A DNA stretch of 64,000 nt from Psilocybe cubensis (lineage: Eukaryota). The stretch covers positions 1,674,001-1,738,000 of the forward strand of contig CM039010.1 of the NCBI GenBank assembly GCA_017499595.2, read 5' to 3'. Each line of letters opens with the position of its first letter. Position 1 is the first letter of the stretch. Below are positions 40,019 to 53,459 of this stretch, piece after piece. The notes under the pieces are model-generated. The model saw nothing but the letters and a program-made list of their open reading frames with translations. It was not told where the DNA came from and made no database searches. The position numbers and the translations under genes were made by a program.

Positions 40019-42952
40019 TCAAACAAACGCAGCGAATAGCTCGTTGTGTCCCGCCATCAGACGCTCAAGTTTCTTGGTGAGCTCGACGCGACGAGTCGCG
40101 GTTTTGCGGTTTTCCTGAGCAAAGTCTTTACATATAGCGTCACCTTTTGGCCCATTGATACCCAATTGTGAGTAGAGGGTAGGGAGTAGATCTTGTGCGA
40201 GGCCGTCAACAAGCTCCGCGTCGATGGTGAGTGGGACGTAGTCGATGAAACGCTTATACGCGACTGGAGTGGGGTATAAAAATTAAATACAAGGTAGCAT
40301 ATCACTTTGACAAAGATAAAGTCTACCTTGGAAGTAAGCTCGCACAGCGGCCATGATTTCAAGAGCGGCTGCATTGCGATCATCCGCCTCTGAAGACGAC
40401 GTCGTCTTTGTCTGTGCTTCATGGTTGGCCTCAGCGACAGGTGTACTTTTTGATGATTCGGCTGGTTCGATTGGTTTGAATGAAATCGTGTTACTGGTGC
40501 CATCACCAAATACATTCGGCCTCGGAATTGTAGTACCGAAGGCCGTTGTATTTGTGCTGGGAGGTTGAGGGAATGTGATTTTCAAGGGCGCCTTTGCATT
40601 TTTGGCGTGTTCTTCGCGAGCAGATTTATACTGTGCCAGGAACTTCGCCTTGTAATCCCTATAGTAATGTGTGTTCATTGTAAAGGGCCACTTCTGTTCC
40701 AGCTTTCGCTGATATTTGACGTGTTGCTCGGCCTTTGCGTGGCAAGCGTTTATATGCGCTTGGACGATGCCCCTAATGTTAAATAATTGAATGAGAAATA
40801 GCACACTTTCAACCTCTTGAGTGCAGTATGAAATACGCACCGAATTTGTTGCTCTAATTTTCCCTGTCCGAACTGGTGGAAATGGTCACGAACCATTTGC
40901 TTTAAATGAGCGCTGACAATGTTATAGGTCGATTTGACCAAAGCATCCGAAGGCGCATCCCACTGTTTGACAATATTCTGGATATATGTCCGCACAACGA
41001 TAGGCGGCATATGGTCTGGAAGTTCGCGCGTGCGCGCCCTATAGATATCATTCAGTCCAAAGTAGACTTTCCCTGTGCATATATGACGTACTTTTTAATT
41101 CGTTCATTCACTTCGTCAAGGCAGATTTTAGGGGACGCCACGGCTTTTGAAGAGGCGAAACCCTCTCGAGTGTCCTCTTGCTCTTCACCGTGCAGAAAAT
41201 CTGCAGGCGGGAGTTTTCCATTGAGCACGCGCGTTTCAAACGGCCAGAACTCCGGCGCGGTTGCGCGTATCGCCCGTTTGAAGTTTTCTTGCTCTGGGGT
41301 GATAGATTGGATTAATCCGGAGGGTGCTCCGAGTCCAAAGCCTTCGGAAACTCCTTTTACGCTCTGCGACACGTCCTGTACAAACATGTGGAGGAGTGTC
41401 AGAATCTCGCTCCGTGGGTCGGTTGAGGGTGGGGGTGCGAGACGTGAAAGTAGTTCGCGAGTACTTGCGATCGACTTTTCTAGCTCATCTTGGATTTCGG
41501 GCATTCTGAAGGTCGCACGTTAATTAATCGAACAAGATAAACGCTATGATTAATGAAACTTGCCTGCTGGAGATCAAGTCAGATAAGACGGTACTAAGCC
41601 TCTCCACCAAGTTTTCGGTCCCAAGGTACTTCCTGTATGGTTCTTCAATTTCAGACCATGGACCAGGCTTTTTGGAGAAGAAATCTTCTTCCAACTGCCG
41701 ACTCTGTGCCCACGATAGTTTCATGTTCAGCTGGAACGAAGAAAGAAGCTTCACGCAGAACCAATTATTTTCAAGAGGCTCCCTTTCGTCACGGATGAAT
41801 GGAATCCACGACGATTCCTCGCCTTGAGGTATACGGTCAGGTTTCGTTAAGACGCCTACGAAAATGCCATATAAATATTCAGAAAGAGAAGGGGAAAATG
41901 CTATTAGTAGACATACCGACTGTACGTTTGCCTTCAGGGTCATATTGTTTAGCTAGGCGGTGGGCACCTTGGTTTTCGAAGTCGGCTGTAAACAGGTCAA
42001 ATTAGGTCTCAATTTGACGCCGGATTGAGCTTACTTTCACAGGCGACGGTCAGAAGAATGATACAACTAGGTTTCTTTATATAGGACACGACCATTTTCT
42101 CCACAAGGGCAATAGAAGAGTCTTCACCACCACGAGCAACGCTGGCGATAAGACCTGAGGACAATGGTCAGGAAAACAACAGCATCAAATGAAAGGTATG
42201 CACACACCTGGGAGGTCGCAGAATGAAAGGTCGGCGACATCTGGGCCACTTATCGAGAGCGTGATACAGTTCAGCGAGAATGCCAATTGTTTCGTAAGTT
42301 TTGTGTTGATGTCGTCCTCCCTTTCGTTCAAAAAGAATTGAAGGTCGAGTGATTGCTGTGGATTAAGAATGGCCCGCTGCGCACGACGGATGCGGTCTTC
42401 AACTTGGGACTTGTCATAGATGATGTCGCCGAACTGCTCGTTCCTCACTTGACCCAACGGTTTGCCGTTAGAGTCCGTGGTGATTCTTAAAGACACAATG
42501 CACTGCCACGGCGCGTCTGTTCGCGTAAGATGACATTCTGTGGGACAGCTGTTTGGCGTTGGGTGTGCGCCACTTGAGAATTTTTAGAAGGAGGACCAAC
42601 AAGCGACAACACGCACCGTGTGCACGTTCCAGACGCCCGTGGCAGTGTGATGCCCGAGACGGCCTCGATGAGCGACGACTTGCCGGCGCTTTGGTTGCCT
42701 ATGACGGCGATTTGTGGGAGGTCGATGTCTACCTGAACACTGCAAATAAAAATGTCAGGTCATTGAAAATTTACTTTCAGGAGAGCACACTAACCCTGTG
42801 TTGTGAAGCTTCTTCATAATGTCGAGCTTGCGGCGCATTTCGTAGTTGAGGCTCGAGGCAGACAACCCAACGCCGCTGGACTCATTGTCCCCGACGTCGT
42901 TGCTTGACTCTTCGGACATCGACATGGACTGGACGGACGAGCTCCTGGACAT
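40019..42952 (-). CDS. Dynamin-superfamily (Mx-like) GTPase, copy A
   Basis: G1 [25 protein letters not shown]2 GTCTR, G3 DLPG, G4 LTKPD; middle domain [22 protein letters not shown]; ends [10 protein letters not shown]. Confidence 0.92.
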
Positions 42953-43285: not shown

Positions 43286-46274
43286 TCACACAAATGCAGC
43301 GAATAACTCGTTGTGGCCCGCCTCAAGCCGCTCTAGTTTCTTCGTGAGTTCGAGTCGACGATTGGCGATCTTCGGGCTTTCTTGTGCAAATTCTTTACAA
43401 ATTTTATCGCCATTGGGACCATTGATGCAAAGTTGCGAGACGAGAGTAGGCCAAAGGTCTTCCGCGAGACCAGTTACGAGCTCCAAGTCTATGGCAGAAG
43501 AAACGTTGTCGATAAAGCGTTTGTATGCAACTATAGTTTGAAGAGTTAAAGGCACGTAATTGAATAGTCAACGGAGGCGCAGTGACTAACCTTGGAAATA
43601 GGCCCGAACGTTGGCCATAATGACAAGAGCAGGTTCCATAGGATCAGAAGAAGGGTCATTTCCTGTTGTTGAATTATCCTGAACAGGAGTAGACGACGAC
43701 GACGAGGTAGAGAAACCAGACGCATTAGGTGGAAAGTTGAAAGCAAGTTTTTCGCCAGTAGGTTTGAAGTTGCCGGAGGTTGGAGCAGAAGAAAATGTAG
43801 GTGTGGCAGGAGTGAATCCTGGGGCCGCCGAGGTAGTCCCGGTCGCCGACTTTGTCCAAGTATCTTGTTTGACATTTGTATTATTGAAGGCAAAGGAATT
43901 AGGGGTTGTGAAGGGGTGCGGAGGTGATGTCACCGAAGGACCGTCTTTCTTTGCCTTGCGTTGTTCTTCATGGGCAGATTGGTAAAGTGCAAGAAATTTC
44001 TTCTTATAATCAGTCAGGTGGTGGGGACTCAGGGTAAAGGGGCAATTTTGCTCAAGCCTCCACTGGTATTTGACACCAGCCTCAGCCCTTGCAAGGCAAG
44101 CACTTATATGCCCCTGAACAATAGCCCTGGATAGCATTGTTAGATAAGAAAAAGCATACTACAGGGTAAAGGAACCACATACCGCACTTGCTGCTCCAGT
44201 TTCCCATGGCCAAACTGCCAGAAATGATCATGGACCATCTGCTTCAGGTGTTTCACGATGATATCATGAACGGCCTTGATCAGAGCTTCCGATGGTACAT
44301 CCCACTGCTTGATAAAAGTGCGAATGTATTCTTCAATGATGTTGTAAGGAACATGACCAGGTAACTCTCTGGTGATTGCCCTACAGCAACAATTACAGTT
44401 TAATGCAAGTTGGAGAATATGTGCAACAGTGCTAGTGAAACTTACTTTGGTATCTGAGCAGACACCTCATCAATGTATATTTTCGTAGGCAAACTGTTTC
44501 TCGCGAAAGATGGTTCCATAAACTCATCCCCTTCTTCGGAAAGAAGGAAATGTGCATGGAGCAGTCTGCCAGGGTTGGTGGTGCCTTTCTCAAAAGGCCA
44601 GAATTCAGGAGCGGTCCCCCGGATGCTTCTTTTGAACTTGTGTTGTTCTGGTCGGATTGACTGAATAAGGCCAGTCAACGAATTCGAGCCAGCCAATTCG
44701 GGGACACCTTTGACATGCTGGGTTACATTCTGCACAAATGTGTGAAGGAGATTTAGAATCTCCGAACGAGGATCAGCGGAGGGTGGAGGTGGGAGACGAG
44801 AGATCTGTTCGCGGGTGTTCGCGATAGATCGTTCGAGTTCATCTTGAATTTGAGGAACTCTGAAGTAATTATGAGACTAGCTCATATATCAGTCAAAAAG
44901 GGTACACACCGCGTTGAAATGAGATCCGAAAGCACAGTGCTCAACCTCTCCACCAAATTGGTGGTTCCGAGATATTTGCGATATGGTTCTTCGACCTCAG
45001 CCCAAGGAGAAGATTTCTTGACGAAAAAATCTTCCTCCAAACGCCTGGTCTCCGCCCACGATAGTTCCATGCGGAGCTCATGAGAAGAAGGAAGTTTGAC
45101 GCAGAACCAGTTGTTCTCCAGTGGCTCCTTCTCATCGCGAATAAATGGGATCCATGAGGATTCTTCTCCCTGGGGTATGCGATCCGGCTTGGTAAGAACA
45201 CCTATATGAAACAATATTCAGGTTTGTTCAATCATTTGTACAGCAATAAACCCACCAATAGTGCGTTTTCCTTCTGGGTCATGTTTTTTGGCCAAACTAT
45301 GGGCTCCTTGGTTTTCGAAGTCGGCTGCATGATGATTAGCTTGACTGAGAAGAGTTACAAAGGTTGGACGTACTTTCGCATGCTACAGTTAAAAGAATGA
45401 TACAGCTTGGTTTCTCGATGTAAGTCTCCACCATCTTGTTGACGAGAGCAATCGAGGCGACATTGCCGCCATTGCCAACACTTGCGATTAAACCTGGTAA
45501 AGATGATAGCACTGAGTGAGCTGATGAAATAATAACGAAAGAAAGGTGCAGCACCTGGCAGATCGCAAAATGAAAGGTCCGCAACATCAGGTCCACTGAT
45601 TGAGAGCGTGATACAATTAAGAGAGAAAGACAGTTGATTATGAAGCAACCCTTTTACTGTGGGATCGTCATCAAGGAGGAATTTTTCACTGTTTATGTTT
45701 GGGTTCAAGATGGCGCGCTGCGCGCGGCGAATACGATCCTCAACCTCGGATTTGTCGTAAATAACATCACCAAACCGGACGTTCTTTGCTTGGCCCAATG
45801 GATTGCCGTTGACGTCTGTAGTTAGTCTTAAAGATACGACACATTGCCACTTCTCGTCTGTTCGAGTGAGGTGGCACTCGGTAGGGCAGCTGGGCGACAA
45901 TTAACATCAAAAATTGGGTCTGTACGAAATGTAAAAAAAAATATACCGCGTGCATGTACCCGACGCGCGTGGAAGGGTTATTCCAGAGACAGCTTCGATG
46001 AGAGACGATTTTCCGGCACTTTGATTTCCGATGACTGCAATTTGTGGGAGATCGATATCTATCTGCACACTAAAACGCGAAAAAGTTAGAAAATAACAAG
46101 TCAGGTTTACTGAAGAACTCACCCTGTGTTGTGTAGCTTTTTCATAACCTCAAACATCCTGCGCACCGCGTAGTTGAGACTTGAGTCCGATAAACCAATA
46201 CCAGTTGATTCATCTTCTTCCATCTCTTCAGAGACAGAGTGAAACGAGGGTGATTGGGGGATGATGGGTTGCAT
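43286..46274 (-). CDS. Dynamin-superfamily (Mx-like) GTPase, copy B
   Basis: Same G1-G4 motifs, matching intron positions and identical C-terminus [10 protein letters not shown] as copy A; start ATG (MQPIIPQ) inferred. Confidence 0.92.
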
Positions 46275-46727: not shown

Positions 46728-46986
46728 TGTGACGGGGCGCGTTATTCACACGGGTCCCGGCACACTGTCGAAGCTCAAATGACTGGATAAAGTGGTCTAT
46801 TCAAGCTCCGTCCTTCTACCTACTCTACCTACTGCTTATATACCTTACTGTAGTACATACGTCATAGATAGAATAATGAGAGAAATATCAAATACGAAAC
46901 TTGTGGAAAGCGATAGAAAACTGTGTCGCTCCGGCACGTCCATGCCGGATATGCTCGGCATTCCCTATTAGGATGCCGCCGTCACA
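46728..46986 (-). repeat. 3' LTR of gag-only element
   Basis: TGTGACGG...CCGTCACA 8-bp terminal inverted repeats; direct repeat of 53201-53459. Confidence 0.96.
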
Positions 46987-47838
46987 TACGCCCTCCAGGC
47001 ATTCCAAAGGAATGACTTATGTCGCCGCTTTCATGGGTGAACTCGATAGGGCAAGATTTCTGACACTCGATACCTTGTTTAACCAAAGAATCTGCATCAA
47101 AAAGGGATGTAGCAATTTTCTCCGGCTCGAGGTCAACATCTTCATCCTGAAGTTGGGCTGTCACGGTTTGTGCAAGTTGTGTCCACCCGCCCTCCAAATC
47201 TTCGGATACGAGGATTTGATTAACGTGTAATTCGCTCAGTTCGACATTAGTTCCTTGTGAGGCCGTAGTATCAATAGCAGAGTGGTCACTGTAACTGTAA
47301 ATATCTGTGTTCAACCCTGTGTCTGCAATGTCACACATAGCCACTTCAACTTCCATGAAATATGATCCCAAACCACTGGCAGTCTGGTCTGTTGCTCCGT
47401 GGTGCTCATTCTCGCTATTACTATCGAGCTCACGGTCACGGTTGCTTACACTCGGTGACTCGTTATATGTAGACGAGATGTTTTGGCGAACATTCCTGCA
47501 GTGACGTCCGATATGCCCAGTTTTCCCGCATCTGTAGCATTTAATTTGGGCATTTCGGACATATCCGCTAGCTTTCACATTTGAATCCTGAGGTAAAGCT
47601 AACACCTTGTCTTCCTTGTCTTGATCTGAGTCATCATCTGTTCCCCCCGATGAAAGTTGACCATGATCACTGTCACTCGGCTCGTCGTCATTATTTACAC
47701 CATAGTTGTTATCATGTGTCTTGTAGTCATATTTACCAGAAACATAGTATTGCTTATTGTATTTTATATATTGTCGTTGATTTCTTTCAATTTCATGCGC
47801 AACTTCATAGCGAGTAGCAATTCTAATGACTTCATCCC

Positions 47839-48140
47839 TGTTGGAGTTTCTCTTCTCACTTGTGTCACATGTCTTCCTCTTTCTCCACGCGTCAACCTCT
47901 GTCCATATTTGCCACTATTTGTTTCCTCGCCAGTATAGACTTGTCGTTTCTTAATTCTCGCATTCCTCAGTTGTTCACTCACTCGAACACTGAGGTATGT
48001 CGGTTTCTGTTCTCGTATACATAGCCTAGCACTGATTCACACCATTCGCACTTCTATAGATACGTCCTCTATAGGTAGTGTTCTGAATATAGTTGTTCAC
48101 TCACTCGAACACTGAGATACGTCCTCTATAGACTCGAACA
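47839..48140 (+). repeat. 5' LTR of copia element (contains intron-like segment and internal duplication)
   Basis: TGTTGGAG...CTCGAACA; no differences seen versus 51427-51728. Confidence 0.97.
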
Positions 48141-48152
48141 GGTTATGGGCCC
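48141..48152 (+). other. Primer-binding site (half tRNA-iMet type)
   Basis: GGTTATGGGCCC immediately after the 5' LTR, the motif used by Drosophila copia/Ty5-type elements. Confidence 0.85.
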
Positions 48153-48344
48153 CGCCTTCATGTAAAGGCGGATATATCTGTTTCGAAGAAATTCTGGTCT
48201 TCTTCGCTGTTCCAATAACTCACATCATACACACTGTCAATCTTTCACTGAACGTGTTCTACTCGGTTTGTATCTGGGTTAACACGCATATATCCACTGC
48301 ACTGTATCTCACACTCTGGGATATCTCTTAGTCACTGTTAAAAT

Positions 48345-51300
48345 ATGGCCGCTGCTCTTACTGGTGGAAGCAGTGCCATAAAAATTGGCGATATTGAGCT
48401 TCTCGTCGGCGCCTCAAACTATGACGCCTGGCGTCGTGGAATGACCACGTTTCTACGAACAAACAACCTATGGGGATACGTCGAAGGCAACCCTAGAGCT
48501 CCAAACGCAAGGCATCACGATGCTCAGCAACTTGCTCCCCATGTTCCGCTCGTTGGTGCAACCGAAGCGCAGGAAAACGCTTATAATACGTGGAGTTTTA
48601 ACGACATGAAGGCTCGCTCTCTCATAGAGCATCGCATCTCACCTGTGTCGCTGTCACTTATTCCATATGAAAAGTACAAAACTGCACGAGAAGTCTGGGC
48701 TGCGATCAAGCTGCTGTATGCGCGTCAGGACACAGCCAGCCAATTCCTCATCAAGGATCGCTTACATTCGCTGAAGTTGAAGGATCACAATGATCTCGAC
48801 AACTATATCAGTGAATTCCAGCGTGGGCGAACAAAACTCATCGAGATGGGTGTACCATACACCGAATTCGAGATGGTTCACGGAATTATACGCGGTTTAC
48901 CAAATCACGGCTCTTGGCAGCACTTCCAAATGCTTCTTACGCAGAACATGGAAGACCATATCGCTCGGCAAAGTGCAGCGAACCCGGATCCTCCTGATAC
49001 CCTGCTGACAAGGACAATCTCGCGTCTCACTGTTGAATGCGCACGTTTGGCGTATAAGACTCCGTCCAATCGCTCTAACGGTCCAGGATCCGAGTACGTG
49101 AATCTTGTAAATGAAGCAACTGGCGTCCGCATCCATGACAAGAACCCGGATGGTGTTGTCTGCACTGTTTGTAAACTACGCTCTCACGACGCCGTGCACT
49201 GTTTTGCAAAAGGCGGCGGCATGGAGGGCCAAGGTCCAAGGGGAAAAGGGAAGGAAAAAGCGAAAATGAAAGATGTCGGCACACTGAAAACCGAAGTTGT
49301 TGCTGCAGTTGTGCCTTCCACTTCGACGTCGACATATGTTGAACCTTCGTTCTACCCAAACGACTTCCTCGGCGACTTATCATGCACCACCATTGAAGAA
49401 GTTTCCCCAGACACGCCACCACTTCACGATCTCACTGCCATGGCATCAGCTCTTGCAAATACAATCATTGATTCAGGTACAACTTCGCATCTCATCAAAG
49501 ACCGTGCTTACTTCTGGACTTACGAGCCAGCTGCTGCACGAGACATGGTGACTGCCAATGCTGGTATTCTTCGCACTAGAGCAAGAGGGACCTGCTATAT
49601 GCGCGTCTCCCTTAACGGTCAATCCACTGTTGTTAAGCTAAATGAATGCTTGCACTCACCCGACGCAACACTCAATCTGTTGTCGCTCGGTCGCATCGTT
49701 GCAAGAAACAGCAAAATTGGTTTTGCATCTGACGATGGCGTCTTCACGCTAATCCGCAAAAACCCACATGCCGTTATCTTCAAGAACAATATCATCAACA
49801 ACTTGTTCTTTCTCAATGTGGAGTTCTTACCCCCTTCACCACCGCTTCCTCGGACTCTCGCGCCACATCCCGTCATGCCAGAAGTTGCACTATATGCTAA
49901 GGTCCCTGAAACCCTTGACCTATGGCATCATCGTATGGGTCACATCGGGGAAGCTGCAACAGGTCGTCTAGTGCACTCCGTGCTCGGTGTCTCCTTTCCC
50001 GCAGGAGATAAAATGGAACGGTGCGAACCTTGTATCATCGGAAAACATGCCAGGAGTCCTGCTCCCTCTTCAACGACTCCAAAATCTGACCATCTTCTGG
50101 CAATTGTCTACGTCGACGGCTGTGGTTCCTTTCCTGTGCTGACTCCACACGGAAAGCTGTACATGATCATTTTCATGGATGACTGTTCCAACGCCATCAA
50201 ATGCCACCTGCTCGCTGATAAATCACAGGCCCTGGATGCATACCTGATCACAAAACGCGCTTGGGAGCGTAAGACTGGTAAATCTCTTAAGTTACTTCGC
50301 TTTGATCCAGCTGGAAAATTCACCTCCAAAACCTTCCTCGGGCAACTGGAACTTGACGGCGTCATTGCAGATGTGATTCCTCGTGCCGAGCACTGGAAAA
50401 ACGGCAAAATCGAACGTTGTTTGCGAACGTTACTTCCGCTTTGGTATTGGGGCAAAGCCGCTCTATGCGCTGCGTATCTGTGGAACCTCACTGTTATCTC
50501 TTCTCTGCCCAAAGATGTCACCCCGTTTGAAATATTTCAAGAGCGCAAACCAAACATTTCGTACCTTCGTGTGTGGGGGTGCAGGTGTTTTGCGCATGTG
50601 CCGCTTGATCTTCAATCCAAACTCGGTGCGAAATCTGTGGAATGTCTTTTCATGGGCTATCCACCTTCAGGAAGAGGATACAGAGTTCGTTGTCTGTCAA
50701 CAAACCACTTCTTTGACTCGGGATCGGTGTACTTCAATGAGAACATTCCTTATAAAGCGCGCCTGCAAATTTCAGAAGAAGAAATGGACTACTCTTCTTT
50801 CCCTTTCCCACAAGATGTTCACGACAACGTATCATCTCAACACCTAATCGGCTCTCTATTGTTTCTCCAGATGAACACACGACCCGATATAGCTTACGCC
50901 GTACAACTGCTGTCACAACACTGTTCCAACCCTTTGCCTCATCACTTCATTGCTGCAAAACGCGTGCTTCGTTATCTCAAAGGCACAAAGTCCCTTCGTC
51001 TTCACTATGGCGGTTTTGTTTGGTCGATGGCAGGCGGTCCCATCTCTTGGTCCTCAAAAAAGCAAACCTGCATTGCTTTATCATCCACCGAAGCCGAGTA
51101 TGTCGCTCTCACTCGCTCTGTACAAGAAGGGATCTGGCTCCAACAGGCCTTCAAGCAAATCTTCATTCCATGTCCTTCCCTACTCATCCTATCAACCGAC
51201 AATAACGGCGCAAAATCCCTTGCTGAAAACGACTCAAATCACGGAAAAGCCAAACACATTGACATACGCTACCATTTCATTCATTCTCACGTAGAATCCA

Positions 51301-51419
51301 ATTCTTTTTCTATTTTACATATTCCAGGTATTCTTAATACTGCAGACATTTTCACCAAGCCCCTCGCCCGTGTCGTCTTTCAAGGTCATGTCGACAGACT
51401 CGGGCTCGCAGCTCGCTGA
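48345..51419 (+). CDS. Copia Gag-Pol polyprotein with in-frame deletions (1024 aa)
   Basis: Gag (ASNYDAWR, KTAREVWAAI), CCHC CTVCKLRSHDAVHC, protease IIDSGTTSH, HHCC WHHRMGH..CEPC, integrase D/D/E, LIGSLLFL..TRPDI, RNase H SWSSKKQ..ALSSTEAEY..KHIDIRYHF..ADIFTK; no YVDD RT core. Confidence 0.93.
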   Translation: MAAALTGGSSAIKIGDIELLVGASNYDAWRRGMTTFLRTNNLWGYVEGNPRAPNARHHDAQQLAPHVPLVGATEAQENAYNTWSFNDMKARSLIEHRISPVSLSLIPYEKYKTAREVWAAIKLLYARQDTASQFLIKDRLHSLKLKDHNDLDNYISEFQRGRTKLIEMGVPYTEFEMVHGIIRGLPNHGSWQHFQMLLTQNMEDHIARQSAANPDPPDTLLTRTISRLTVECARLAYKTPSNRSNGPGSEYVNLVNEATGVRIHDKNPDGVVCTVCKLRSHDAVHCFAKGGGMEGQGPRGKGKEKAKMKDVGTLKTEVVAAVVPSTSTSTYVEPSFYPNDFLGDLSCTTIEEVSPDTPPLHDLTAMASALANTIIDSGTTSHLIKDRAYFWTYEPAAARDMVTANAGILRTRARGTCYMRVSLNGQSTVVKLNECLHSPDATLNLLSLGRIVARNSKIGFASDDGVFTLIRKNPHAVIFKNNIINNLFFLNVEFLPPSPPLPRTLAPHPVMPEVALYAKVPETLDLWHHRMGHIGEAATGRLVHSVLGVSFPAGDKMERCEPCIIGKHARSPAPSSTTPKSDHLLAIVYVDGCGSFPVLTPHGKLYMIIFMDDCSNAIKCHLLADKSQALDAYLITKRAWERKTGKSLKLLRFDPAGKFTSKTFLGQLELDGVIADVIPRAEHWKNGKIERCLRTLLPLWYWGKAALCAAYLWNLTVISSLPKDVTPFEIFQERKPNISYLRVWGCRCFAHVPLDLQSKLGAKSVECLFMGYPPSGRGYRVRCLSTNHFFDSGSVYFNENIPYKARLQISEEEMDYSSFPFPQDVHDNVSSQHLIGSLLFLQMNTRPDIAYAVQLLSQHCSNPLPHHFIAAKRVLRYLKGTKSLRLHYGGFVWSMAGGPISWSSKKQTCIALSSTEAEYVALTRSVQEGIWLQQAFKQIFIPCPSLLILSTDNNGAKSLAENDSNHGKAKHIDIRYHFIHSHVESNSFSILHIPGILNTADIFTKPLARVVFQGHVDRLGLAAR

Positions 51420-51426
51420 GGGGGGC
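51418..51426 (+). other. Polypurine tract of copia element
   Basis: GAGGGGGGC directly before the 3' LTR. Confidence 0.8.
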
Positions 51427-51728
51427 TGTTGGAGTTTCTCTTCTCACTTGTGTCACATGTCTTCCTCTTTCTCCACGCGTCAACCTCTGTCCATATTTGC
51501 CACTATTTGTTTCCTCGCCAGTATAGACTTGTCGTTTCTTAATTCTCGCATTCCTCAGTTGTTCACTCACTCGAACACTGAGGTATGTCGGTTTCTGTTC
51601 TCGTATACATAGCCTAGCACTGATTCACACCATTCGCACTTCTATAGATACGTCCTCTATAGGTAGTGTTCTGAATATAGTTGTTCACTCACTCGAACAC
51701 TGAGATACGTCCTCTATAGACTCGAACA
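51427..51728 (+). repeat. 3' LTR of copia element
   Basis: Direct repeat of 47839-48140. Confidence 0.97.
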
Positions 51729-53200
51729 ATCCCACGTGTTTTGCTCGTAGTCGAGTCCTTCCTTCCAAAGGGCGGATTGTAATTCAGGTTTCAATCCGTT
51801 CCACAAACGATCTACGCGTTGCGAAGGAGTAGACTTTCCCACAATGCGGAATAAAATCAATAATTCGGCAGCATACTCAGCCACAGTCATTGATCCTTGA
51901 GAAAACTTCTCGAGTTTCTTTCTTTGTTTCAGTCTGTAATCGGGTGGGAAGCAATAATTATAAAGTTCAGTAAAGAATCGTTGCCTGTCCCAGGAGTCTA
52001 CACTTATGGACACCATTGTAGAGTAGAATTTGTATGCTTTTCCGGCGAGGTAATCAGCACATTTCACTACTTGATCCTGGGGAGGTAATGCAGCCTCTTT
52101 ACAAAATCTGTCACACTGAGTAATGTATTTGTAAAATTTCATAAAGTCTGCGTCGCCATGATACTTATCCGGGGCTGTAGGCGGTAACGGTTTGAATCTC
52201 GCGGGATTTATTATGTGTCCCTCGGTGTCCAACGGTCCCAGTGCTCGGGCGCTTAACTCGGCGTGCTCCTTGCCGCTATTACCTTTCGGGTTGGCCAGAA
52301 GCTGTCCGAGTAAACTTTCCGCGGGTAACTGGTTGCTAGGCTTAATAGCCTCTGTCCGTCTAGCCTGCGTTTGTTGACGCGCCGCTTGTGTGATAAGATC
52401 TTCGACATCATGAGACATGGGAGTGGTGGATATACCGCGTCTCTCAGTTTTCGGTTGAACTTCAATGGATTGATATCGTCTCGTGTATACCTTCTTCATT
52501 TCAGTGAGTTTCCTTTCCATTTCCTGAATTTGTAAGTAATCATTATCAATTGTAATTTCCTGCGATTCTTCGCGACCGTGACTGTTATCGGAGTCCTCTG
52601 GTGCACGGGAAACCTCAAAAATGCTACCATTCATATTAATGGCATTCTCAATTCTACTTAACCTATCCATCAAGGATGTAATGAGTTCCTTAGTTTCAGT
52701 AACAACAGTCTGTGCATCATTCACAGAGCTTCTATAGACACTATTAATCTCAGTGTCTACCATATACCTATTAAAACTATTCAAGCTTAAGCTTCTACGA
52801 GCGCGCCTGGCTGCAGCGGCTGCGCTCCCGGTGTTGTTTGGATTATTCCCGCGGTGGTCATCCCGACCACGCGCGCCGCCTTCCTCCATTCCGGTAGGCA
52901 AGGCTTCCTGCTTGGGGTCGTCACCTCTCGAAGCAGGGGGATCCCGGTCAGACCCCGTGGTTGGCACGTCCCTGGCGGCCGTATGACCCCTCGGTGCTCG
53001 ACCACTCCTCAACGTGGCTCCTCTAGTAGCCATGGTCTGAACTAATAGCAAAGTTAATACACAAAGAAAGTCCGTCACGACGTACCTGGTATCCTCGGGT
53101 GATCAAGCCGAGGGGGAACGCAATGGTAGATGTCGGCGACGGCGAACGCGAGTTAGAGAGAGTAGAGTAGTGCGATGAGAATAGACGAGAGTCAAAAATA

Positions 53201-53459
53201 TGTGACGGGGCGCGTTATTCACACGGGTCCCGGCACACTGTCGAAGCTCAAATGACTGGATAAAGTGGTCTATTCAAGCTCCGTCCTTCTACCTACTCTA
53301 CCTACTGCTTATATACCTTACTGTAGTACATACGTCATAGATAGAATAATGAGAGAAATATCAAATACGAAACTTGTGGAAAGCGATAGAAAACTGTGTC
53401 GCTCCGGCACGTCCATGCCGGATATGCTCGGCATTCCCTATTAGGATGCCGCCGTCACA
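53201..53459 (-). repeat. 5' LTR of gag-only element
   Basis: Direct repeat of 46728-46986; TATATAAG on the minus strand. Confidence 0.96.

Follow-up and report, generated by a model that had tools for sequence, protein, structure and literature searches.

In human T-cell leukemia virus type 1 (HTLV-1), bovine leukemia virus (BLV) and the foamy viruses, the major splice donor lies inside the R region of the long terminal repeat (LTR), at both ends of the RNA, and it is kept since unspliced RNA serves as the template for reverse transcription. Spliceosomal introns lying wholly within LTRs have been reported from long-read RNA of maize, in what the authors call the first evidence of the kind (10.64898/2026.05.08.723830). 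In split-intron retroviral vectors (Ismail et al., 2000, as related in the review PMC3182074) the daughter provirus acquires or regains an intron through reverse transcription, and the reverse transcriptase (RT) is also credited with motif duplications in the LTR of human immunodeficiency virus type 1 subtype C (HIV-1C; PMC12115494, PMC13288777) and with aberrant strand transfers (PMC12657518). Here we describe a copia-type retrotransposon of 3,890 bp (positions 47839–51728) in a 64,000-nt stretch of Psilocybe cubensis contig CM039010.1 (1,674,001 to 1,738,000, hereafter the window), whose LTR holds what looks like a complete intron and, downstream of it, an exact copy of the flanking sequence from which that intron has been removed. 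We hold, with moderate confidence, that this composite LTR is the fossil of an aberrant strong-stop transfer from a spliced RNA, which has been propagated by ordinary copying since then.

The two LTRs (302 bp each, plus strand, 47839–48140 and 51427–51728) are 100% identical and begin and end with TG...CA. A script confirmed in both of them the segment order U (130 nt), A (26), I1 (65), B (15), X (16), A (26), B (15) and C (9), and the LTR coordinates, strings and segment order given by an initial annotation of this DNA proved exact throughout. In the 5' LTR, the part that precedes the first A, U (47839–47968), carries a TATA-like TATAGA at 47934–47939 and would act as the promoter region; this motif sits 35 nt upstream of A1, just as the initial annotation had it. 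A1 (47969–47994), the first “exon” piece, starts in TCAGTT and includes ACTCGAACA, and it is followed by the candidate spliceosomal intron I1 (47995–48059), the second “exon” piece B1 (48060–48074) and the spacer X (48075–48090). The next 41 nt, A2+B2 (48091–48131), match A1+B1 exactly upon string comparison with the intron absent, and the LTR closes with C (48132–48140), which is again ACTCGAACA. The corresponding parts of the 3' LTR are A1 at 51557–51582, I1 at 51583–51647, B1 at 51648–51662, X at 51663–51678, A2B2 at 51679–51719 and C at 51720–51728. A+B+C is thus identical to the last 50 nt of the LTR, and within the window the fused 41-nt A+B has no occurrence other than those at 48091 and 51679 even when up to 3 mismatches are tolerated, against 0.00 occurrences expected from 100 shuffles.

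The edges of the copied segment are informative. Its left edge is sharp, as not a single base before 47969 is in common with the bases before 48091, and the right edge of the fused copy coincides with the end of the LTR, which directly adjoins the primer-binding site. The copy therefore spans exactly the extent of a strong-stop complementary DNA (cDNA), and this is why we read the last 50 nt as the probable strong-stop cDNA of a spliced leader; a left edge at a start-like TCAGTT, 35 nt past TATAGA, fits a full-length product of this type. A second TATAGA, which straddles the joint of I1 with B, lies 36 nt upstream of A2, and X together with the first base of A2 reads AATATA (48086–48091). The pair of motifs before A2 resembles an ordinary U3|R boundary.

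Several smaller features of the LTR may be recorded beside this layout. The terminal nonanucleotide ACTCGAACA at 48132–48140 is also present inside each A, at 47981–47989 and 48103–48111. The pentamer TATAG occurs five times in the 302-bp LTR (47934, 48055, 48070, 48088 and 48127) where 0.26 occurrences are expected (Poisson P for 4 or more of 1.5e-4), and its sites include the end of I1, the end of B and the joint between X and A2. Nothing similar to X was found elsewhere in the 64-kb window. The idea that X derives, with divergence, from the promoter region preceding A1 was dropped, as the local alignment score was reached by 1651 of 2000 shuffles and the global score by 986 of 2000, and so was the idea that B, X and the end of I1 form a degenerate tandem array of 15–18-nt units (350, 847 and 4740 of 5000 shuffles), for which the common TATAG was all that exceeded chance. 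A weak BLAST match of A at 16262–16290 was judged unrelated. No known RNA family was matched within 47700–48400 at E values up to 1, and the predicted fold of the leader gave no sign of a special structure (z = −0.41).

The signals in I1 are those of a canonical intron, namely a GTATGT donor, a CTGAT branch site whose A lies 24 nt from the 3' end, and a TAG acceptor. To put a value on this likeness we applied four criteria (GT...AG ends, a GTRNGT donor, CTRAY placed 10–40 nt from the end, and a YAG acceptor) to 2,000,000 random 65-mers of the window, allowing the three cut phases that arise from a 2-nt AG overlap. The same 2 nt leave the cut of I1 ambiguous, as the repeat at B measures 17 nt with the AG included. 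Of the random 65-mers, 19,835 had GT...AG ends, 642 also had a GTRNGT donor, 142 retained a placed CTRAY and 93 passed all criteria after the addition of YAG, whereas I1 passes all four, which bears out the earlier description of a canonical 65-nt intron. The rarity of such signals means that the pair A-I1-B and A-B should not be a chance indel. The length of I1 also seems reasonable for this genome: a heuristic that sought GT...AG segments with the same signals joining two 50-codon open stretches outside the transposon nest kept 12 of 2,086 candidates as putative host introns, which range from 49 to 85 nt with a median of 57.5 nt. I1 therefore looks like a genuine spliceosomal intron, with the processed DNA copy at 48091–48131 as an indirect sign of its removal, and A-I1-B and A-B are most likely an unspliced and spliced pair, A+B being the reverse-transcribed spliced copy.

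The same cannot be said of the second intron that had been proposed at 48075–48131. This 57-nt segment does have GT...AG ends, as claimed, but its donor GTAGTG departs from the consensus and fails GTRNGT, and CTRAY is absent from 48075–48131, where only TTCAC and CTCAC are found. It is true that removing both segments leaves A+B+C, identical to the last 50 nt of the LTR; for the 57-nt part, however, this result is automatic, because the segment is exactly one tandem unit of X+A+B and its removal is bound to give A+B+C. The independent support for a second intron comes down to the GT at the start of X, for which the chance is about 1 in 16, and we consider such an intron not supported by the sequence.

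With these elements in place, the history that we favor can be set out as follows. In a Ty1/copia element whose 5' leader is encoded in the LTR, I1 would be a true spliceosomal intron of that leader. On at least one occasion an RNA starting at or very near 47969 would have been spliced, after which reverse transcription would have run from the primer-binding site up to the cap and given a 50-nt strong-stop cDNA consisting of A+B+C. Had this product annealed to A of the 3' repeat, the intron would just have been lost; instead the cDNA would have been joined downstream, after X, through a misaligned or microhomology-guided first-strand transfer, with the composite LTR U-A-I1-B-X-A-B-C as the outcome. 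This LTR has presumably been copied in the ordinary manner ever since, as it is regenerated from any RNA in which the templating I1 is unspliced, and either copy of A may by now serve as a start of transcription. The identity of A1B1 and A2B2 would then reflect the youth of the family as opposed to renewal in each cycle, and the number of 57-nt units would still vary through similar transfers or copy choice.

To determine which replication routes are compatible with the present LTR, first-strand transfers were enumerated by script for starts at A1 or A2, for 5' splicing of neither segment, of I1, of the 57-nt segment or of both, and for a 3' I1 either spliced or not, with all sites having 12 nt in common with the start of the leader allowed as acceptors. 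Four routes reproduce the LTR unchanged. One starts at A1 with both ends unspliced (172 nt of homology); another starts at A1 with the 5' end unspliced and the 3' intron spliced; a third, which is that of the initial annotation, starts at A1 with both introns removed and lands on A2 (50 nt); and the last both starts at A2 and lands on A2 (50 nt). The existence of four regenerating routes means that the pre-spliced copy is not needed for keeping the intron, just as retroviruses keep their splice sites with no such copy; it is needed only if spliced RNA serves as the template. The enumeration also yields an LTR longer by one unit (hereafter the +57 variant) from a single transfer route, in which the RNA starts at A1, I1 is spliced, the 3' LTR is unspliced and 41 nt of homology guide the strong-stop DNA to A2B2; copy choice between the two 17-nt B repeats, or their unequal exchange, would produce the same variant equally well.

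Public sequencing data illustrate how the element behaves as a population of copies. The element is present in six public DNA runs from three studies, and the interval 47500–49000 was compared with a raw-read DNA run (X11), two contig sets (X5 and X6) and a further run guessed to be RNA (X13), the last of which gave 0 contigs on the interval and so says nothing about expression either way. The full 302-bp LTR is found with 0 differences in one 302-nt contig of X5 and in one 331-nt contig of X6 that includes 29 nt of upstream flank. In X11 the summed depth is approximately 158–226 over the LTR and 45–66 over the inner part from 48469, and the left flank, which belongs to the host element described below, reaches approximately 228–277, the highest depth on the stretch. 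At the start of the LTR, reads of X11 run out into at least three other contexts: 55 enter the polypurine tract, 25 a different flank and 28, of mixed sequence, yet another, and at its end 71 reads (mixed) pass into other flanks as well. An empty site, in which 47838 is joined directly to the sequence after 51733, is represented by 225 reads in X11 and by contigs in X5 and X6, and these would come from other copies of the host element or from the unoccupied site of that strain. Just two variant letters are listed within the LTR in X11, C>T at 48014 in 17 of 173 reads and, from a relative, C>T at 48135. Since X11 is almost without LTR variants and the contigs of X5 and X6 match with 0 differences, the LTR family appears to be young and small.

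The intron is retained across this family, which occurs in X11 at several loci with I1 intact. Depth across I1 is flat (approximately 193, against approximately 190 in the neighboring LTR bins), which means that there are no extra copies of I1 elsewhere and that it is no multi-copy introner; the window likewise holds no other copy of I1. Among the joints listed for X11, with thresholds of 3 reads and 4%, none corresponds to loss of I1, loss of the 57-nt segment or a gain of 122 nt, although with so few LTR copies the failure to see intron-less LTRs in this run is weak evidence. The initial annotation had named two observations that would speak against it, a pattern restricted to this one copy and daughter copies that routinely lack the intron. 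Neither was seen: the pattern is in all copies observed, at several loci, and the joints listed include no intron-less one. What X11, with its reads from another strain, does contain is a joint leading from 48114 back to 48058, covered by 24 reads with 19 different start positions and with 17 letters that fit both sides, and this joint describes an LTR with one extra X+A+B unit, i.e., the +57 variant. It is not among the joints listed for the contigs of X5 and X6. All three DNA data sets also reveal a related LTR, in which what precedes 48127 is replaced by other sequence (X11 has 29 such reads, and X5 and X6 have contigs of this form). Its common parts are the last 14 nt of the LTR, the primer-binding site and the leader, with scattered differences up to approximately 48450; in the 30 nt before 48127, 18 of 30 positions are identical by manual count, including an unbroken run of 12 nt across the A|B boundary. 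This diverged LTR thus carries the fused A|B junction at its end as well, and in the reads and contigs, which enter it from the 48127 side, it is seen solely in fused form.

The interpretation that accompanied the initial annotation was that of an intron-preserving cycle, in which transcription starts at A1, both introns are spliced from the 5' leader and the strong-stop DNA anneals to A2-B2-C of an unspliced 3' LTR, whose intron-bearing part is then copied as if it were U3, so that even a spliced genomic RNA gives intron-bearing daughters. Its premises hold up, in that I1 is intron-like and A+B seems to be a processed copy of its surroundings; the design itself is not required, since three other and quite ordinary routes keep the intron, among them a start at A2. 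We consider this cycle unlikely. It is self-consistent, being the sole 5'-spliced route in the enumeration that returns an identical LTR (through 50 nt of contiguous homology), and the by-product that it predicts when intron 2 is kept, with 41 nt of homology, is the +57 variant of X11, where no intron-less LTR joint is listed; that variant arises equally from copy choice or unequal exchange at the 17-nt B repeats. The fused junction in the diverged related LTR also speaks for it. On the side of motive, a dependence of mRNA accumulation on introns is documented in basidiomycetes (PMC3744415, PMC7017817, PMC4935854), the polyprotein has its closest named relatives in Agaricales, and, more speculatively, I1 of the 3' LTR lies 164 nt past the stop codon, so that RNAs spliced there might face nonsense-mediated decay. 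Set against this, the donor of the second intron lacks G at +5 and the segment has no CTRAY; one and the same RNA would have to lose I1 from its 5' end and keep it at its 3' end, an asymmetry for which the sequence offers no basis; and a single family of near-identical copies gives no sign of renewal over time. A fuller version, in which the LTR is a working device whose terminal A-B-C is a landing pad that lets 5'-spliced RNA regenerate intron-bearing LTRs, with the terminal copy rewritten from A1+B1 in each cycle, strikes us as decidedly unlikely. If it were true, the rewriting would keep the two copies identical, the +57 variant would be what results when the weak second intron stays in, and the marks left by splicing could aid expression in basidiomycetes or help to avoid spliceosome-linked silencing; besides the intron dependence of mRNA accumulation just cited, the spliceosome-coupled RNA interference described in Cryptococcus (PMC7175516, in the part of the text available) would provide a possible selective context.

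The remaining explanations change the order of events or dispense with splicing. A tandem duplication of approximately 122 nt of the leader, by RT copy choice or DNA slippage, may have come first and been followed by precise loss of the distal intron, either via reverse transcription of RNA spliced only distally or through conversion by a spliced cDNA. Changes in tandem-unit number do occur here, as the +57 variant illustrates, and precise intron loss through cDNA is standard, with Ty1 cDNA replacing intron-containing genes as an example (PMC7175516, same part). We nevertheless find this order of events quite improbable, as two events at the minimum must be assumed, with one more change besides (the distal unit precedes C, not X), and it stays unexplained why the copy starts exactly at a start-site-like position and ends at the LTR terminus. 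Intron gain is very improbable: the fused A+B would be original, it would have been duplicated, and the 65-nt intron would have entered the proximal copy at ...GAG|A by reverse splicing or as an introner-like insertion. The related LTR is indeed seen only in fused form, and the RNA of a retroelement offers a natural way for a reverse-spliced intron to become fixed; however, I1 has no terminal repeats, no extra copies of it were found in the window or suggested by the flat depth in X11, and duplication plus a rare gain is called for where precise loss by splicing and reverse transcription is common. That the 65 nt are an ordinary indel between repeat copies, intron-like by accident, has next to no probability. 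Microhomology-mediated deletion would also leave the 2-nt AG overlap at the cut, but such an accident is what the count of 93 in 2,000,000 random 65-mers speaks against.

The fossil of an aberrant strong-stop transfer is thus the history that we favor, and a number of points weigh against it. The origin of X is unexplained, and no simple single transfer from a U-A-I1-B-C ancestor yields it; an ancestral sequence between B and C is needed, possibly a real second intron, or else a second event. The diverged related LTR already has the fused junction. If that junction was inherited from the event recorded here, repeated renewal would be needed to account for A1B1 and A2B2 being identical, and this would favor the intron-preserving cycle; we read it as a probable independent and ordinary intron loss. 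The +57 variant, with its 24 reads, is a by-product that the cycle predicts, and, with TATA at nearly the same distance from A in both copies (35 and 36 nt), the layout may point to selection. A further weak point is that ACTCGAACA also lies inside A, which may reflect an earlier terminus of the LTR or another template switch.

The element that carries this LTR is a typical member of its class in most respects. Besides the identical TG...CA repeats, whose termini form a 9-nt inverted repeat with 8 of 9 matching, it is flanked by a 5-bp target-site duplication (ATCCC at 47834–47838 and 51729–51733), and it has a primer-binding site at 48141–48156, identified by sequence reading directly after the 5' LTR, as well as a polypurine tract, GAGGGGGG, at 51418–51425 just upstream of the 3' LTR. 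The reverse complement of the primer-binding site contains CAT (anticodon CAU) in an anticodon-loop-like context. Ty5 primes from the initiator tRNA's anticodon stem-loop and, as far as the available part of that report goes, likewise has its primer site directly after the LTR with a complement holding the CAU anticodon (PMC5371799), which suggests that the present element may be primed by a half initiator tRNA in the manner of Ty5. No tRNA gene with which to compare the primer site was found in the 64-kb window.

A single open reading frame (ORF) of 1024 aa on the plus strand (48345–51419) encodes gag, a protease barrel, pre-integrase, integrase, SH3 and an RNase H tail, and its Pfam matches are, in order, Retrotran_gag_2, Pol_BBD, gag_pre-integrs, rve and SH3_retrovirus. 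The repeats with their duplication, the primer site with the polypurine tract and the integrase-type domain order are all those of a Ty1/copia element, but RVT_2 (reverse transcriptase), the mark of an autonomous one, has no Pfam match in the ORF. In the atlas clusters listed for the ORF, RVT_2 is present in 100% of the members, which are 1316–1666 aa long. Alignment with 15 of the best 120 relatives, to which the ORF is 39–60% identical over the alignment, indicates that the RT block and part of RNase H are gone. Local identity in BLASTP among these best 120 relatives, whose named members include Agaricales species, is at most approximately 52–55% for near-full-length matches. Without an RT domain the element must be mobilized in trans. 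It appears to be a non-autonomous deletion derivative with an open frame that was inserted very recently, probably in an agaricomycete; one host ORF, whose best atlas match reached 0.87 with Basidiomycota as the commonest group, gives a weak lead to that phylum. The 1024-aa frame stays uninterrupted despite the loss of the whole RT domain and part of RNase H, and together with the identical LTRs this marks 48345–51419 as the coding part of what is apparently a recently mobilized, trans-dependent deletion derivative.

The copia element sits inside a second LTR element of 2.8 kb on the minus strand (46728–53459), whose own LTRs (259 bp, minus strand, 46728–46986 and 53201–53459) are 100% identical upon sequence comparison. 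The split ORF of this host element has only Retrotrans_gag and CCHC zinc-knuckle matches, so that it would be a gag-only, non-autonomous element. Upstream of the nest, at 41908–42292 and 45247–45639, are two direct-repeat pairs of 81 and 88 nt, 78–82% identical and approximately 3.3 kb apart, which suggest a diverged duplicated gene or element.

Similar arrangements were also sought outside the window. A limited literature search on introns inside LTRs and on minus-strand transfer of spliced RNA returned no description of an LTR with an intron and its processed copy. The exact pattern of LTR end plus primer site had 0 matches in metagenome contigs, and relatives of the polyprotein were absent from the 542 pattern matches in metagenome contigs, from the 34 in viral contigs and from the 29 obtained there by a search with the polyprotein alignment. 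The 16-nt primer-site pattern alone hit two loci in viral contigs (L001 and L002), which were taken for chance, and the 74-aa reading frame that crosses the LTR returned, as a query, one candidate and none that scored.

Reverse transcription is expected to purge introns, yet this element holds a whole intron-like segment in its LTR and has spread with it. Its DNA keeps the spliced form beside the unspliced one, and may be seen as a record of an RNA start, of splicing and of a strand-transfer accident involving spliced RNA. Were the arrangement used in every cycle, it would amount to a new way to combine splicing-dependent expression with faithful copying, and this would matter for fungi whose transgenes must contain introns and in which genome defense draws on the quality of splicing. 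As it stands, the composite LTR is a well-defined and testable curiosity in one small, young family.

The element has in common with Ty1/copia elements, Ty5 included, the TG...CA LTRs, the 5-bp duplication and the order of gag, protease and integrase, and differs from them in the missing RT domain, the shortened RNase H and an LTR that holds an intron-like segment plus its processed copy. Splice signals within the LTR are a feature that it has in common with HTLV-1, BLV and the foamy viruses; theirs, however, are a donor only, with no whole intron or processed copy. There is also a likeness in kind to the maize LTRs, in which a whole spliceosomal intron likewise lies inside the repeat, although the maize introns average 1303 bp and their spliced non-coding LTR transcripts have been seen, while the one described here is a 65-nt candidate seen in the DNA; the available part of that report describes no processed copy beside the intron (10.64898/2026.05.08.723830), whereas here the DNA itself holds the spliced form. 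Split-intron vectors follow the same logic as the intron-preserving cycle, as sequence upstream of R in the 3' LTR is copied to the 5' LTR, but they are man-made, they place donor and acceptor in separate parts of the vector and, so far as the consulted section of the review describes them, they have no pre-spliced landing copy (PMC3182074). In RT-made retroviral LTR duplications, as in the change proposed here, misaligned or non-homologous template switching gives heritable tandem duplications (PMC12115494, PMC13288777, PMC12657518). The HIV-1C duplications, in the accessible portions of those reports, copy unspliced sequence (PMC12115494, PMC13288777); here one copy is spliced, which means that the donor template would have been a processed RNA. 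An intron-bearing copia LTR that aberrant strand transfer has rearranged would thus combine known kinds of event in a new form.

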